IMG/VR virus record: IMGVR_UViG_2654587792_000011
Length of the DNA: 14,367 bases
Direction: 5' to 3' (one strand)
Source: a virus
Lineage: Duplodnaviria > Heunggongvirae > Uroviricota > Caudoviricetes
Shown: positions 3,375-13,023 of the stretch, piece after piece
Position numbering within the stretch: the stretch's first letter is position 1
Layout: every line of letters starts with the position of its first letter
The notes under the pieces: generated by a model
The model's database searches: none
Seen by the model: only the letters and a program-made list of their open reading frames with translations
Told to the model about the DNA's origin: nothing
Program-made: the position numbers and the translations under genes

Positions 3375-4370
3375 TTACCCAAGCACGCCGGTTGCAAAGG
3401 CGTGATCAAGAAAATGAAAAATTAAATCAACCTGGGAACCATGCTTTTCTTCGAATGCCAGCGGATCCGCATGAAGCTCGTTGTGATGTTCCCGACACAG
3501 CGGTAGTGTGAAAATATCGTGGGATTTTGTTCCCATTCCACCCTGACCGTGGCCTATCAGGTGGTGGGCATCATCAGCAGGCTTTCCGCAACATGCGCAC
3601 GGCTGCGTCTTAACCCAGCGCGTGTACTTTTCATTAACCCAGCGGCGACGTTTTGGGCGTAACATAAAAGACTCCGGCGACTCCGGATCCACTTTCAGCG
3701 CCAGCACCTTTTTCGCCTTATCCTGGATGATGCTGGTGGCAGTAACCGAAGGCACAAGGTCACTTTCCCGGGTAACAGACGGCACAACAGGCTTCGGTAA
3801 TCTCAGTGCCTTACGGGCTGCACTTTCCGATAAGGCATCCGCCAGATCATTACGAATCAGCCACCAGCACAGTTCCGGCATTGTCACAACGTGACTGTCG
3901 TCAAAACCGAGCTCCCGACGCACAACAGACAACACCCAGCGGGCACAGTTATCCGTTGCCATTGATTCCAGCCGTTCCGTGAACTGATCGCGCAGCTGGT
4001 TATCGCAGTGCCAGCACAGACGGATTGCGCCCGGAGCGTGTCGCATTGTGGTCATGTTCTCGCTGTGCCAGTTGGAATGAGGCCACTGACAGCCCTTTTC
4101 ACGAAGTAACCAGCTTTCAAGACATTCCACGCCACCAGCACGACGGATCACTGCCTCATTGCGGAACACGGCCCGAACGGCAGGATCATCCGCCAGCGGT
4201 TGTGATGCCGCCGGAACGGCACCACTGGCAAAAGATGAATAACGTTCCGGCTCAGGCTCCAGCAGGACACGCCCCTGCATAAACAGGGGCATCAGCTCTG
4301 AACCGGGCCTGAACAATACGATCCCCATACGCGGGGCAATTTCAGGGGTCAGTAGTGCTCTCACGGTCAC
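3375..4370 (-). CDS. Conserved phage protein with C-terminal HNH-like Cys/His motif (DUF968-like)
   Basis: 331 aa. C-terminal CACCGKP...HHLIGHG...LCREHHNELH looks like a zinc-binding HNH nuclease-like motif. Sits between the helicase and rusA as in many enterobacterial prophages. Confidence 0.55.
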   Translation of the reverse strand: MTVRALLTPEIAPRMGIVLFRPGSELMPLFMQGRVLLEPEPERYSSFASGAVPAASQPLADDPAVRAVFRNEAVIRRAGGVECLESWLLREKGCQWPHSNWHSENMTTMRHAPGAIRLCWHCDNQLRDQFTERLESMATDNCARWVLSVVRRELGFDDSHVVTMPELCWWLIRNDLADALSESAARKALRLPKPVVPSVTRESDLVPSVTATSIIQDKAKKVLALKVDPESPESFMLRPKRRRWVNEKYTRWVKTQPCACCGKPADDAHHLIGHGQGGMGTKSHDIFTLPLCREHHNELHADPLAFEEKHGSQVDLIFHFLDHAFATGVLG

Positions 4371-4415: not shown

Positions 4416-4673
4416 TCACGCAGTAAACTCCTTCACCAGTATTTCAAACTGGCTTACCTGGCCTTCCAGTTCCGCCACGCAATCCACCAGCTCATCCACC
4501 GCCTTTTGTGTGCGGTGTTTTGCCAGCAGCAGATCACGCAGCGCCGGAGTAAGCTGCTTGCGGAGCGTATCCTTTGCCACGCTCGTTTTTTCCATCTGTT
4601 CAGCACAACGAAGCATCTCCTGCGCCTGCCGACGAAGTTGTTCCGGTGAAACAGTGATTGCTCTGTTGTTCAA
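4416..4673 (-). CDS. Hypothetical phage protein
   Basis: 85-aa ORF whose start overlaps the helicase stop by 4 nt. No recognisable motif. Confidence 0.45.
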   Translation of the reverse strand: MNNRAITVSPEQLRRQAQEMLRCAEQMEKTSVAKDTLRKQLTPALRDLLLAKHRTQKAVDELVDCVAELEGQVSQFEILVKEFTA

Positions 4674-6070
4674 AATAAACGCTCCGTTTTACTGCCCGAC
4701 ATGCGGTTATTGCTGTATCTGCGCGGATTGCCCGGCGTCATGGGTGTGGAAAGAACCCGGGCACTCTCCTGGTCCACAGGCAGAAAATGTCCGTTATGAA
4801 AACGCCGGTAAATGGTCCCGAGCGTGCCATTACGCTGTTTCGTGATGTTGATTTCTGCTATGCCTCTGGCCTGAGTTTCCGGGTTGTATACCTCATCCCT
4901 GTAAAGCATCAGAATGATGTCGGCATCCGCCTCGATTTCCCCGGAGTTTTTCAGGTCCGAGTTCATTGGGCGTTTATTGGGTCTGGATTCCACGCCGCGG
5001 GAGAGTTGGCTCAGAGCAATCAGCGGAAAACCGCCGGATTTTGCCAGGCTTTTAAGTCCCTTTGAGATTTCCCCCACAGCAAGGTCGTGACGCCCCGTGC
5101 TGCGGGTTTTAATCAGGCCGAGGTAATCGACCACAACCAGCGCCGTTTCCGGGTGTTTCATCCGGTGGTGCTTCGTGGTTGCACATATCTCATCAATGGT
5201 CAGGTTTGCCTGGTCCACCATCCAGATATTACGCCCCGTCATTCGTCCCACGCCCTGCGAGAAACGCGCCCAGTCTTCATCTTCAAAACGGGCAACAGAC
5301 TTAAGACGGGATACCGGCATTCCACCGGCAGCAGACACCATACGTTCACCAATCTGGATGTTCGCCATCTCCATGGTGAACAGAAGCACGCCATGCCCCT
5401 GCTCAGTCACCTTGTCGATGATGTCCAGCGCAAGTTCGGTTTTCCCCATCGAAGGACGGGCGGCAATGAATACCAGGTCTCCGGGCTCCATACCGCCCGT
5501 TTTTGCGTCCAGTTCATCAATACCGGTCATCAGCGCCCTGGATTTCTCCAGTCCCTGATTGCGGCATTCAACACGGTCGACCACTTCCGGAAGGACATCA
5601 TCAATGTGAACCGGCTGAATGACGCCCTTTCCGGTCGACAGTGAGGCCATCATGTTCTGCGCATCCTTCAGGGCATCCTCGGCTGCTTCACAGGTATACG
5701 CATCACGTAAATTCTGTAATGCTTCAGTCAGTGTTTTTTCTGCATCGCGCAGTGCGGCATTGCGCCGCAACGCTGCGACATAGTGCTCCAGTGAAGACTT
5801 CACCCAGGTTTTGCGTCCGGTGTCGGTAATCACCGGGGCAAGTTCCGGCATCTCATTGCACAGCAGTACGGGGTCAATGACGCCGGATATGCGAGCCTGT
5901 CTGCAAATCCCCGCGTAAATATCCCGGTACTGACGCACAAAAAATACATCCGCCGGAAGTGTGGCCAGAATATCCATCACTTCCGGATCGGCCCCACGCA
6001 GAAAAAACGCACCGATGACAGCGCCTTCCAGGTCATCGTTACGCCATGCCGGGGTGTTCTGGCTGGTCAT
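4670..6070 (-). CDS. Replicative DNA helicase, DnaB family
   Basis: 466 aa. Walker A ARPSMGKT, Walker B-like VVVDYLGL, overall DnaB-like RecA-fold C-terminal domain. Confidence 0.9.
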   Translation of the reverse strand: MTSQNTPAWRNDDLEGAVIGAFFLRGADPEVMDILATLPADVFFVRQYRDIYAGICRQARISGVIDPVLLCNEMPELAPVITDTGRKTWVKSSLEHYVAALRRNAALRDAEKTLTEALQNLRDAYTCEAAEDALKDAQNMMASLSTGKGVIQPVHIDDVLPEVVDRVECRNQGLEKSRALMTGIDELDAKTGGMEPGDLVFIAARPSMGKTELALDIIDKVTEQGHGVLLFTMEMANIQIGERMVSAAGGMPVSRLKSVARFEDEDWARFSQGVGRMTGRNIWMVDQANLTIDEICATTKHHRMKHPETALVVVDYLGLIKTRSTGRHDLAVGEISKGLKSLAKSGGFPLIALSQLSRGVESRPNKRPMNSDLKNSGEIEADADIILMLYRDEVYNPETQARGIAEINITKQRNGTLGTIYRRFHNGHFLPVDQESARVLSTPMTPGNPRRYSNNRMSGSKTERLF

Positions 6071-6954
6071 GCGGCAACACCTCCGATACGAGAACGGTAG
6101 CTGGGCCAGTTAAACGACAACCAGTTGCGCCCGCCATCGGTGATCCTGTCGGCAATCCGGGGACTGATGAACGCCCACAATTCTTCCGGTGAAAGGTTGC
6201 TGATCAGGATAGTTGGCAAAATACCCTCATACCGGGCATTGATAATTTCCTGCAAAATGGCCATTTCAGCCGCACTGCCAAACTGAACGCCGACTTCGTC
6301 GACAATCAGCAAATCCAGTGACGCATAATGCTCAATGACGTCATCCGCTGTTTTTTCACTGTCATTCCGCCAGCAGTTTTTCACAGCCCGGGTAAGGCGC
6401 ATCACGTCGGTGATCTCCACACTGGCCAGATAGTTACGGATGATGTGTTTTGCCATTGATACCGCCAGATGATTTTTCCCGGTACCGCAACTGCCGGTCA
6501 TAACAAGACTGGTACCGTTCTCCAGCATATCTGGCCAGTTCTCCGCATAGCGGCGACAGGCCGCAAGATTTCTGGCTGCGTCAGGATTAACCTCCAGATA
6601 ATTATCAAACTCGCAGTCCCGAAAACGCAGAGCAATTCCGGCGTTATCAGTCAGTTCTTCCGCCTTGAGGGACGACAGTTCCATGGTCAAATCACTGGCC
6701 TCAGCGATCAAGCAGTCAGGGCAGCATGAAATTTTTTCTCTGTCCTCGCCATTACGATCGATCCACACCAGTATATGCGTACGATATTTACCGTGTTTTT
6801 CGCAATATCCGCGACCTTCACGCATCAGGCAGGAACGATAAGGCCATGGCTTTTCGCCCTTCTGAGCAAATGCAATCTCTGCCCGTAACTCATCCATTCG
6901 CGCCTGTAGTCTTGTTTGTTTCTCACGTTGGTCAATCGTCATCATCGCTGTCAC
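6067..6954 (-). CDS. Helicase loader, DnaC/IstB-like AAA+ ATPase
   Basis: 295 aa. Walker A GSCGTGKNHLA, Walker B LLIVDEVG. Start overlaps the helicase gene by 4 nt. Confidence 0.85.
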   Translation of the reverse strand: MTAMMTIDQREKQTRLQARMDELRAEIAFAQKGEKPWPYRSCLMREGRGYCEKHGKYRTHILVWIDRNGEDREKISCCPDCLIAEASDLTMELSSLKAEELTDNAGIALRFRDCEFDNYLEVNPDAARNLAACRRYAENWPDMLENGTSLVMTGSCGTGKNHLAVSMAKHIIRNYLASVEITDVMRLTRAVKNCWRNDSEKTADDVIEHYASLDLLIVDEVGVQFGSAAEMAILQEIINARYEGILPTILISNLSPEELWAFISPRIADRITDGGRNWLSFNWPSYRSRIGGVAA

Positions 6955-6955
6955 C

Positions 6956-7948
6956 TCAGAATGTCAATTTGTTACTGGATTTACCGAATTTGTCAGACAT
7001 GGCTCCCAGGCCAGCCAGGACATCGACCTGTCGCTGTCGCCCACCTCCGTGAGCGGCTGGCTGTTGCCAGTAATCTTCGAAGTGACGATCGGGTCCAAAG
7101 AACGTCGCAGCCTGCTTCACGAACTGTGTGCCGATATTTCCTGTAGCACGTACCCAGGCGGCATACCGCTTCACGCCATCAAGCATGGTCTCCGGTTTTA
7201 TTCCCTCCCTGATACGGGCTTTCCAGGCTTTGAAGGCTGCTGACTTGGAATTGCCACCAGCACGTTTGGGATATTCCTGCCAGGCCTGTTCAAATTCCGG
7301 TGAATATTCCTGTCGGGCAGAACGCGCTGGCGCAGACGCGTCAGCGGATGCATCAATAGTGTTTTTAGTCTCCGTTGTAATCTCTGTAGTAATCTCTGTA
7401 TTTGTATCAACATTCGGCGTATCCCCTGTTCCGTTATGACGTCGGGGGGTGTTCCGTTTTAACGTAATAGCTGTATCGCTGATTGCATTATTGCTGTTAC
7501 TTTCTGGCGAAACAGAAGAAGGTGTGGTGATGGCCGCAATTGCCTGTGGGTTGATCCCGACAAACAAAATATTGCTGCATTTCACCCCATCGAGCATTTC
7601 CACCGTGCGTAAATCCAGAGTAATAAACCCTGCATCGCGCAGACGCTTCAGCGCATCTGCGGTTTCCCTTTTCCCGAAACCAAACTGCTCAGCAAACGCC
7701 TGGTAGCTTCTTTGCAGTTTGTCGCCCTGAAAACGCTTGCGATATCCCAGCAACGCTCCGGTGTGCTCATCCCTGACCTCTGTCGGGCGGTACCAGTAAA
7801 CGATCTCTGAAAGCAGAGCGATAGCCGTCGCATCCGGACGCCCACTGGGTAGTCGAATATATTTCCACCAGTTCGCAGGTGTAACATTGCCGGAAATATT
7901 AATTTGACCAATAGCCATAACTTCCGGTGTGGGGGCGTAACGGCTCAT
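6956..7948 (-). CDS. Replication initiator (lambda O-like replisome organiser)
   Basis: 330 aa directly upstream of the loader and helicase. Has a Ser/Thr/Asp-rich central linker with repeated peptide TEITTEITTE, and DNA direct repeats inside the gene (ori inside O, as in lambda). Confidence 0.55.
   Translation of the reverse strand: MSRYAPTPEVMAIGQINISGNVTPANWWKYIRLPSGRPDATAIALLSEIVYWYRPTEVRDEHTGALLGYRKRFQGDKLQRSYQAFAEQFGFGKRETADALKRLRDAGFITLDLRTVEMLDGVKCSNILFVGINPQAIAAITTPSSVSPESNSNNAISDTAITLKRNTPRRHNGTGDTPNVDTNTEITTEITTETKNTIDASADASAPARSARQEYSPEFEQAWQEYPKRAGGNSKSAAFKAWKARIREGIKPETMLDGVKRYAAWVRATGNIGTQFVKQAATFFGPDRHFEDYWQQPAAHGGGRQRQVDVLAGLGAMSDKFGKSSNKLTF
7377..7400. repeat. Tandem 12-bp direct repeat (GTAATCTCTGTA x2) with degenerate flanking copies; candidate origin iterons
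   Basis: Exact tandem copies at 7377-7388 and 7389-7400, flanked by related CTCCGTTGTAA and TTTGTATCAA. Located in the linker-coding part of the O-like gene. Confidence 0.4.
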
Positions 7949-8244
7949 ACAACCTCCTTCCGCGGCATGAGAATTGTGTAGCCACGCGCAGGTTGTAGTC
8001 TGGCTTTTGCATCAATAGTAAGCGTTGCAATTTTTCGGATATGAAGATAACCAGCTCTTTCCAGTGCCAGGGTTTCCCTGAATATCGCTTGCTTAGAACA
8101 ACAGCAGAAATCAGCAAGCACCCGATGATCAATAACTCTCTCGCCTTCACCGTCTGAAGAACCCGACATCAAAACACGCAACATAATCAGGCGCTGAATC
8201 GGGTTATCGAAAGCACATCCGCACACAAACTGAAAACAGTTCAC
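7945..8244 (-). CDS. Hypothetical phage protein, possible DNA-binding
   Basis: 99-aa ORF with 4-nt overlaps to both neighbours. Confidence 0.45.
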   Translation of the reverse strand: MNCFQFVCGCAFDNPIQRLIMLRVLMSGSSDGEGERVIDHRVLADFCCCSKQAIFRETLALERAGYLHIRKIATLTIDAKARLQPARGYTILMPRKEVV

Positions 8245-8465
8245 GCCACACCTCCCAGACGCTTAAACATTTTTCCAGACAGAAATACCGCCAGAGGGTA
8301 ACTGATGGTGTAGCTACGCCCCTGTAGTTCGCACACGACTTTCTGGCTTTCAGCGTTGACTAGGCAAACCCGCAGAACGTGACCGTTGCTGGTGGCGAAC
8401 CACTGCCCCACACGGGGGCAACGGTTGTATCGGTGATACAGGGAATTAACGATGTGGCGGATCAT
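8241..8465 (-). CDS. Hypothetical phage protein
   Basis: 74-aa ORF with 4-nt overlaps to both neighbours. Confidence 0.4.
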   Translation of the reverse strand: MIRHIVNSLYHRYNRCPRVGQWFATSNGHVLRVCLVNAESQKVVCELQGRSYTISYPLAVFLSGKMFKRLGGVA

Positions 8466-10604: not shown

Positions 10605-10737
10605 AACAAAGCACCAATATTAACTTTATAAATCAAGAATACATCAAGTTTAAATTAACATGCAAATTACAAAAGGATCGAATACACTAAAATCAAGTAA
10701 AGATTTATCCTTGTAAAGAAACCCACAGGATTTGGTC
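10605..10737. promoter_or_regulatory. Divergent promoter/operator region between the cro-like and cI genes (oR/pR/pRM-like)
   Basis: AT-rich. ATCAAG occurs three times (10632, 10643, 10692) and GTAAAGA twice (10697, 10713). Individual operators are not resolved. Confidence 0.5.
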
Positions 10738-12810: not shown

Positions 12811-13023
12811 ATGCATCAGAAAACAGCAGAACACGAACAAACCAGAATATTGCTGACCATCAAAAACGGGAAAGTAATATTCATTCTCCATGTTCATGAC
12901 GATGAACTTGTAGGAACTCTTTCAACATTCCTGTTTATTGCAGAAAAGGCAGGATATGACGTTATTGCACCAGCAGATGAAGATGAAGATGAAGATGAAG
13001 ATGAAGATGAAGATGAGGAATAA
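12811..13023 (+). CDS. Small protein with C-terminal (Asp-Glu)7 acidic tail
   Basis: 70 aa with SD GGGAGA (12800-12805). Hydrophobic beta-like core followed by the tail DEDEDEDEDEDEDEE. Confidence 0.55.
   Translation: MHQKTAEHEQTRILLTIKNGKVIFILHVHDDELVGTLSTFLFIAEKAGYDVIAPADEDEDEDEDEDEDEE
12976..13017 (+). repeat. In-frame hexanucleotide tandem repeat (GATGAA)6 plus GATGAG
   Basis: Seven consecutive hexamers read directly from the sequence; they encode the (DE)7 tail. Confidence 0.9.

Follow-up and report, generated by a model that had tools for sequence, protein, structure and literature searches.

A tandem 12-nucleotide word conserved inside phage replication initiator genes, a candidate melting block of a bipartite in-gene origin

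Introduction

The window analyzed here is a stretch of 14,367 nucleotides from a Caudoviricetes virus (IMG/VR record IMGVR_UViG_2654587792_000011). It carries on the minus strand a gene for a replication initiator protein, followed downstream by genes for a DnaC/IstB-like helicase loader and a DnaB-like helicase (Table 1). Inside the initiator gene, in the DNA that codes for the linker between the N-terminal winged-helix domain (N-domain) and the C-terminal module, lies a 12-nucleotide word repeated in tandem. A first-pass annotation of the window, made from its letters alone, had read this repeat as the iterons of a lambda-like origin inside an O-like gene. We find that a cis-acting replication element in the linker-coding DNA is supported by selection at the DNA level across phyla, by a position always just after the N-domain and by AT-richness, and that the repeat very probably has some role in the replication origin of the prophage. 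The iterons themselves appear to lie elsewhere than had been proposed.

Table 1. Features of the initiator gene and its presumed partners (window coordinates)
Feature	Position	Strand	Basis or remark
DnaB-like replicative helicase gene, presumed trans-acting partner	4670..6070	-	Pfam DnaB_C, E 8e-74; RefSeq "replicative DNA helicase"
DnaC/IstB-like AAA+ helicase loader gene, presumed trans-acting partner	6067..6954	-	Pfam IstB_IS21, E 4e-14
Replication initiator gene, 330 aa: N-terminal winged helix, linker with candidate cis element, C-terminal module related to helicase-loader recruitment	6956..7948	-	Open reading frame (ORF), translation, phrog_270
C-terminal module, from ..IDASADASAPARSARQEYSPEFEQAW.. 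/ ..IGASADASAPARSARQEYSPEFEQAW.. to gene end	6956..7358	-	92-99% DNA identity with phiP27, PhiR49_2 and many Stx phages having other N-domains
Degenerate third 12-mer unit, coding strand AACGGAGACTAA, 8/12	7365..7376	-	Relatives PU-1 and AF6 have an insertion of a third exact unit at this place
Two exact units of the invariant word TACAGAGATTAC (= GTAATCTCTGTA on the plus strand)	7377..7400	-	
Degenerate third iteron position and conserved leader GAnACAAA, coding strand ACGCCGAATGTTGATACAAA	7401..7420	-	Register of last Serratia iteron
Candidate iteron 2, coding strand ACGTCATAACGGAACA, read R-H-N-G-T	7427..7442	-	23 bp from copy 1, different frame
Candidate iteron 1, coding strand ACGTTAAAACGGAACA, read T-L-K-R-N-T	7450..7465	-	Direct repeat family D2, spacing 23 bp
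DNA coding for N-domain (aa 1-142): winged helix with inserted beta-hairpin, invariant motif ..EIVYWYRP..DE..G..F..D.LQ..	7523..7948	-	Alignments A1, A2

The tandem repeat in the initiator gene

On the plus strand the word GTAATCTCTGTA is present exactly at 7377-7388 and exactly again at 7389-7400, as the first-pass annotation had stated. Tandem Repeats Finder describes the region 7369-7400 as a repeat of period 12 with 2.7 copies, 90% matches and a score of 50, and by our own calculation chance alone would give an exact tandem 12-mer about 14367 x 4^-12 = 9e-4 times in DNA the size of the window. The degenerate flanking copies that had also been described hold for one side, where TTAGTCTCCGTT at 7365-7376 matches the 12-mer at 8 of 12 positions; on the opposite flank no convincing copy was found. 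Elsewhere in the 14.4-kb window there is no further copy with 0-1 mismatch, the nearest matches (at 3797, 5221, 5707 and 7464) having two. The 12-mers lie inside the minus-strand ORF 6956-7948 and encode the peptide TEIT-TEIT, within ...TNTEITTEITTETKNTIDASADASAPA... / ...DTNTEITTEITTETKNTIDASADASAPA..., and the 50 nucleotides 7360-7409 have a G+C content of 32%, the minimum within 6900-8300.

Among close relatives in E. coli the number of 12-mer copies is 2 or 3. The length polymorphism is located at 7376/7377, where strains PU-1 and AF6 (loci among L002, L003, L008 and L009) carry a third exact 12-mer. Scanned against Rfam at E<=1, the region 6900-8300 had only a chance match to a snoRNA, and no obvious structure was seen at the block. 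The 12-mer was also considered as a DnaA box and rejected, since its best match to TTATCCACA is only 4-5 of 9 positions by eye.

Conservation of the word in the N-domain family

The N-domain of the initiator belongs to a winged-helix family, defined here by its EIVYWYRP motif and absent from Pfam, for which we confirmed 345 loci, counted in contigs of species-representative genomes with one genome per species. Homologues are 35-70% identical and are found in Enterobacterales, Acinetobacter, Rickettsiales, Clostridia, Bacilli, Chloroflexi and Cyanobacteria, in phages of Acinetobacter, Bacillus, Geobacillus and Eggerthella, and on plasmids of Vagococcus, Bacillus, Nostoc, Deinococcus, Protochlamydia and Megaera. 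The residues G20 N21 P24 W27 .. Y51 W52 Y53 R54 P55 .. D76 L78 Q79 are invariant in both alignments, A1 and A2, and the window protein conforms to them. The C-terminal domains paired with this N-domain are diverse and include LvrA-C-like, Phg_2220_C, DUF6017, DnaB_2/DnaD-like and DnaA_N domains. In Rickettsiales (Megaera and others) and in some metagenomic members, the N-domain is fused at either end to the DnaA N-terminal domain, PF11638 (L076, L095; P0018, H111-H115). Judged from their domain composition, these fusions link the family to recruitment of the DnaB helicase by a different route.

The linker of 43 of 47 non-redundant members, the window included, contains one to four tandem TACAGAGAWTAC units directly after the N-domain, preceded by a leader with the consensus GAnAC(A/G)(A/T)A. 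In the 300 kb of sequence from the 47 members, the 16.9 kb of linker contain exact TACARAGAHTAC 50 times, and the other 283 kb do not contain it on either strand. From Enterobacteria to Firmicutes and Cyanobacteria, ten of the 12 positions of the word hardly vary, and the architecture as a whole is conserved across hundreds of elements.

The conservation could reside in the peptide or in the nucleic acid, and codon usage distinguishes the two. Motifs were defined by peptide alone, as T[EK][INT]T, so that the comparison is not circular, and the same genes outside the linker served as background. The first Thr codon is ACA in 55 of 58 motifs as against 227 of 605 in the background (p 1e-18). The Glu codons GAG:GAA stand at 37:5 in the motif and at 290:495 in the background (p 3e-11), the Lys codons AAG:AAA at 15:1 and 300:583 (p 1.3e-6), and ATT versus other Ile codons at 24:1 and 373:512 (p 2e-8). 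The same DNA word is moreover read in another frame, as YRDY, NRDY or DRDY, at loci such as L032, L060, L061, L063, L068, L070 and L078. Because synonymous codons are nearly fixed and the word is kept when read in other frames, these comparisons indicate that the target of selection is the DNA (or RNA) rather than the peptide. No description of the DNA word or of TEITTEIT-type peptides was found in the literature searched, whose coverage was limited, so that this is weak evidence of novelty.

Phased repeats upstream of the 12-mers

Nearly all members of the family carry, in the stretch from the N-domain to the 12-mers, 2-7 copies of a repeat whose sequence is their own. Their spacing is 22 bp in 39 intervals, 23 bp in 21 and 44-45 bp in 17, which makes 60 of 88 intervals with 22 or 23 bp, and the last repeat starts 16-30 nucleotides before the first 12-mer. 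Since neither 22 nor 23 is divisible by 3, the reading frame changes from each copy to the next, as in Serratia, where they give ..TPPTLKR and NTPLRSD...

The window contains two such 16-nucleotide repeats placed 23 bp apart, then a degenerate third and then the 12-mer block with its 32% G+C, which is the layout of an in-gene iteron array. Here too the 23-bp period is not a multiple of 3, and the repeat therefore resides in the DNA and not in the peptide. In position and in sequence theme, candidate iteron 1 is homologous to the repeats that relatives have at 22-23 bp, such as TACGTTGAAACGTAA of Serratia. The degenerate position at 7401-7420 shares the register of the final Serratia iteron, ACGTTGAAACGTGAGACGTA-TACAGAG, with 13 of 20 positions matching by eye. 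Judged by their sequence and spacing, the type-specific 22-23-bp repeats upstream are probably better iteron candidates than the 12-mers. Those of the window (7427-7465) lie 30-90 bp deeper in the gene than the 12-mers and fall outside the interval in which the first-pass annotation had looked for the iterons.

The word in other initiator types and at module boundaries

A search in the reverse direction started from the word. The exact 24-mer TACAGAGAWTACTACAGAGAWTAC occurs in at least 120 IMG/VR stretches, 80 of which were analyzed. Three of the 80 were truncated, and in all the other 77 the 24-mer lies in an initiator-like ORF just after the N-terminal domain. That domain is of the focal type in 56 stretches and of other types in 21, comprising the type found in Stx1 phages and at least three more. 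The N-domains of these 21 ORFs are about 100-130 aa long, with the 24-mer at aa ~135-180, and none of the seven representatives scanned had an N-domain present in Pfam. Comparison of the Stx1-type domain with the focal domain by hhalign gave a probability of 70% and an E value of 4e-5, and the former may be a remote homologue of the latter.

The other types likewise have repeats, 3-6 of them, ending at the 12-mer block, with a spacing of 23 bp in 31 of 49 intervals. The sequence of these repeats is particular to each type and the 12-mers are constant. The 12-mer is thus not a type-specific iteron, because the same word follows other N-domain types. In these comparisons it behaves as a common element, and the type-specific, helically phased repeats behave like iterons. 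In the initiator-like gene of one IMG/VR stretch (L109) an HNH endonuclease domain is inserted between the N-domain and the 12-mer block; the block is kept, at aa 266.

The word follows the distribution of N-domains and not that of C-domains. It is absent from phiP27 and PhiR49_2, in which the C-domain of the window is present, and from genes with unrelated helix-turn-helix N-domains. The DNA identity of Stx1 and Stx2 phages to the window stops at 7399, within the 12-mer block, and that of phages of the phiP27 and PhiR49_2 type stops at 7358-7360, at its edge. Before the shared module, the linker of PhiR49_2 has a different direct repeat, GAACCAGTCAAA twice, and that of phiP27 has three repeat families. 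The linker of Stx1_14040 has GGGAAA-type repeats and then four degenerate copies of the 12-mer of the window. From these breakpoints, the invariant word may serve as a joint at which N- and C-modules are swapped.

The mosaic structure also bears on the linker peptide. The first-pass annotation had placed the repeats in a stretch containing both TEITTEITTE and DASADASA. The 12-mers do encode TEITTEIT. DASADASA (~7326-7349) is real but belongs to the C-terminal module, since phiP27 and Stx phages with other N-domains share it, and it is unrelated to the repeat element. In strains R14 and S6, 6 bp of the DASADASA-coding stretch (~7326-7331) are missing; in S6, moreover, an additional A near 7566 shifts the frame, and the gene is annotated as a pseudogene.

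Duplex stability of the block

Within the replication genes and the adjoining ORF (4670-8244), the least stable stretch of 50 base stacks is 7356-7406, which ranks 1 of 3531. The block thus combines the lowest duplex stability of this region with tandem AT-rich repeats beside candidate iterons, as a DNA-unwinding element would. In the family, the median stability percentile of the block within its own gene is 5.4%.

Discussion

With moderate confidence we interpret the 12-mers as the invariant, AT-rich and easily melted block of a bipartite origin located inside the initiator gene. In the coding direction the order would be N-domain (7948-7523), iterons (7465-7450, 7442-7427 and the degenerate 7420-7401), leader GATACAAA, two TACAGAGATTAC units with the degenerate unit (7400-7365), and C-terminal module. 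From this arrangement we infer protein binding, strand opening and origin activity as follows. The phased iterons would be bound by N-domain dimers along a single face of the helix, and the adjacent 12-mer block, the least stable duplex of the replication gene cluster, would melt. The block would probably also be contacted sequence-specifically, maybe on one strand, by a conserved part of the initiator, since its conservation far exceeds mere AT-richness. The C-terminal module would then recruit the DnaC-like loader and the DnaB-like helicase of the phage. Because the element lies inside a gene, transcription from the early right promoter would traverse the origin, as in lambda.

Several observations weigh against this interpretation. 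A simple unwinding element needs no invariant sequence, so that melting alone does not fully explain the block. The window has only two good iterons, compared with a family norm of 3-4. Over the entire window, 7356-7406 comes only 158th of 14317 by instability, and intergenic DNA of the immunity region, near 10617, is less stable. GC skew speaks for the interpretation in one plasmid and not in two others. In pPNK (L097), a 145-kb plasmid of Protochlamydia, the cumulative GC-skew minimum at 1189-1190 falls 50 bp from gacaaaTACAGAGATTTC, the 12-mer unit inside its initiator gene of the family, at 1239, although this is a single case, for which we estimate the chance of a coincidence within +/-1 kb at about 1-2%. 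The GC-skew minimum of Megaera plasmid p1 is 25 kb from the gene, and the skew of Deinococcus pDAETH-4, which is phage-like and follows gene orientation, gives no support; in both of these plasmids the gene is without the 12-mer.

How else might the repeats be explained? The first-pass annotation took the 12-mers themselves for the iterons, that is, for duplex sites that bind the N-domain and seed assembly of the origin complex, in the manner of the four iterons bound by lambda O. Such a role would agree with the constant position of the word directly after an initiator N-domain and its absence beside unrelated helix-turn-helix N-domains, and with its tandem repetition in 1-4 copies. Many invariant residues of the focal N-domain could read an invariant site, and the Stx1-type domain, which also occurs with the word, may be remotely homologous to it. 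However, an identical word after at least four to five N-domain types, several of them with little shared sequence, cannot give replicon specificity, and every type has upstream its own repeats, phased at 22-23 bp, which fit the definition of an iteron better. A 12-bp period sets successive sites on different helical faces, and the block is the most AT-rich and least stable part of the gene, which is usual for a region that is opened rather than for anchoring sites. We therefore regard the proposal as unlikely; the 12-mer block is probably not the initiator-specific iteron.

The block could instead be conserved mainly as a recombination joint, for the swapping of origin-specificity and helicase-recruitment modules, or as a signal at the RNA level, such as an mRNA site for translational autoregulation. 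The mosaic breakpoints fall exactly at the block (7399 and 7358-7360), and many N-domain types are linked to many C-domain types through this one block. Evolvability alone cannot supply the purifying selection that holds 10 of 12 positions nearly constant over such a range of hosts, however, and there is neither a match to an Rfam family nor an obvious structure. As the main cause of the conservation this account seems improbable to us, and use of the block as a recombination joint agrees with a role in replication, to which it is probably secondary. We give very little credence to the idea that the repeats are merely a slippage-prone, low-complexity linker rich in Thr and Glu, conserved as peptide and without cis function. 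The copy number does vary between close E. coli relatives, a neighboring 6-bp unit is polymorphic as well, and the peptide is typical of flexible linkers. Against this, the synonymous positions are nearly fixed in opposition to the codon usage of each genome, the word is retained when read in another frame, and it is found nowhere else in the 300 kb of flanking DNA. Recent horizontal copying of one DNA segment is unlikely because the N-domains of the loci are only 35-55% identical as proteins.

A broader and more doubtful proposal is that tandem TACAGAGAWTAC is a universal origin word. It would be a sequence-specific opening site or second-contact site, possibly read as single-stranded DNA, common to a large uncurated superfamily of winged-helix initiators in phages, phage-plasmids and plasmids of Proteobacteria, Firmicutes, Cyanobacteria, Chloroflexi and Chlamydiae. 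Specificity would reside in the adjacent 22-23-bp iterons, and the word would double as the joint for module exchange. If the interpretation of the 12-mers as part of a bipartite in-gene origin is correct, one short DNA word would predict to the base pair the origins of hundreds of prophages, phage-plasmids and plasmids that otherwise lack annotation, from widely different bacteria. There would be two separable and independently mutable functions, that of the type-specific iterons and that of the invariant opening or contact block, and the position of the module boundaries in these initiator genes would be explained. The region 7365-7470 would be the likely origin site of an O55:H7 lambdoid prophage with a replication module of the DnaC/DnaB type. 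The word is in addition a clear example of a coding sequence whose synonymous sites are fixed by a function of the DNA.

The layout of iterons followed by an AT-rich element inside the initiator gene is known already from lambda and SPP1. What differs here is an initiator family unrelated to O by sequence, partners of the DnaC/DnaB type, and an AT-rich, ordered 12-mer array conserved across phyla and initiator types. In lambda, the iterons and an AT-rich tract lie in the middle of O and transcription reads through the origin (PMC7466680). The window resembles lambda in that its candidate origin is in the middle of the initiator gene, between a DNA-binding N-domain and a presumed loader-recruiting C-domain, with candidate iterons leading directly to the AT-rich tract. 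Origins of the lambda type are also found in the Stx phages 933W and P27, which have O/P modules, and the number of iterons varies between phages. There are several differences from lambda. The iterons of the family are spaced at 22-23 bp and have another sequence; the partners of the window initiator are DnaC-like and DnaB-like proteins encoded downstream, whereas lambda uses P; and the AT-rich part of the family is an ordered tandem 12-mer conserved across phyla and initiator types, which is not known for the tract of lambda. The AT-rich origin tract of lambda (L096) at 39119-39165, GACACAAAAGACACTATTACAAAAG..AAAGATTAT with the peptide DTKDTITKEKRKDY, is superficially like GAGACAAA-TACAAAGATTAC / TNTKNT..NKDY of the family, and its best match to the 12-mer is about 8 of 12 by eye.

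The window initiator also has no sequence homology to O. The protein has no match in Pfam or NCBIfam at E<=0.01, PF09681 and TIGR01714 included. The lambda O family of Pfam is Phage_rep_O, which we take to be PF04492. Comparison of the N-domain profile with lambda O by hhalign gave a probability of 0.3%, blastp gave nothing meaningful, and the PHROGs named "O-like" are matched only weakly (phrog_391, E 6e-7). The label "O-like" given to the gene by the first-pass annotation is thus to be read as an analogy and not as a statement of homology.

In SPP1, oriL consists of direct repeats together with an AT-rich unwinding element within gene 38, which encodes the replisome organizer G38P (PMC6316719). 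G38P binds oriL. What the window shares with this arrangement is that repeats and an AT-rich element are both placed within the gene of the initiator itself, with a helicase loader and a DnaB-type helicase encoded next (PMC6316719). A homologue of the window N-domain in Bacillus phage 0105phi7-2, 42% identical, is annotated as "replisome organizer and ori-binding protein", and its annotators report an HHpred match to TIGR01714. SPP1 was not among the tblastn matches. To our knowledge, its repeat sequences are unrelated to those of the window. The RepA_N plasmid initiators of Gram-positive bacteria (pSK41, pAD1, pLS32) have their oriV repeats in the center of repA. In oriC and in iteron plasmids such as RK2, AT-rich tandem 13-mers adjoin the initiator-binding repeats, and the initiator contacts one melted strand, so that the sequence of the repeat matters. 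The window block is like these 13-mers in being a set of short AT-rich tandem repeats directly beside candidate initiator-binding repeats, but it differs in its period of 12, in its sequence, in lying inside a coding region and in being conserved across unrelated hosts and several initiator types.

Genomic setting and additional observations

The initiator matches phrog_270, "replication initiation protein", over aa 2-329 (E 7.3e-78), and its residues ~182-301 match phrog_1701, "DnaD-like helicase loader" (E 1e-38). Relatives of the C-terminal module are named "LvrA C-terminal domain-related" in RefSeq. A sequence search of PDB chains with the whole protein found nothing. The N-domain was modeled by AlphaFold2 with a pLDDT of 91.7 and a pTM of 0.84, and fold searches with the model returned generic winged helices only, with no specific solved relative; RepA (4pta), DnaB (5wtn) and DnaD (8ojj) were among the matches and none stood out. 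The product of 6067-6954 matches the DnaC model of NCBIfam with an E value of 4e-36, below the curated cut-off.

The initiator gene sits in the early right operon of a lambdoid prophage, with a cI-like repressor gene, a cro-like gene and Rha/Ash-type regulators upstream. The 1.1 kb around the 12-mers shows 100% identity to a prophage carried by E. coli O55:H7 RM12579, and a match to this 1.1 kb is present in 480 of 5426 complete E. coli genomes. In the DnaC-like gene (window 6070-6900), a comparison of gene coordinates with NC_017656.1 implies a length difference of 21 bp (offset 80 below and 101 above), so the window is a close but not identical relative of the RM12579 prophage.

A 99-aa ORF at 7945-8244 (minus strand) overlaps the start codon of the initiator gene by 4 nucleotides and, with an E value of 1e-28, aligns to positions 1-93 of phrog_4617, "replication initiation protein". 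This ORF stands beside the initiator in most E. coli relatives and is missing in OkiPb01706 (L005). In the E. coli prophages L006-L009, a different extreme C-terminal tail goes with the same N-domain and candidate origin region, and homology to the window begins at ~7037-7067. The next gene encodes a regulator of the PerC/YfdN type in L007-L009, not a DnaC/DnaB-like protein, and an ATP-binding protein in L006. By this comparison, the extreme C-terminal tail of the initiator may contact the DnaC/DnaB-like pair.

Elsewhere in the window, three tRNA genes lie on the minus strand of the prophage late region at 524-773. Two are Arg-tct and Arg-tcg, and the third, with a CAT anticodon, is assigned to Met by ARAGORN and to Ile by RefSeq. 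The strongest tandem repeat of the window is a perfect array of seven AGATGA hexamers at 12975-13016 (Tandem Repeats Finder score 84), inside a small plus-strand ORF at 12811-13023.

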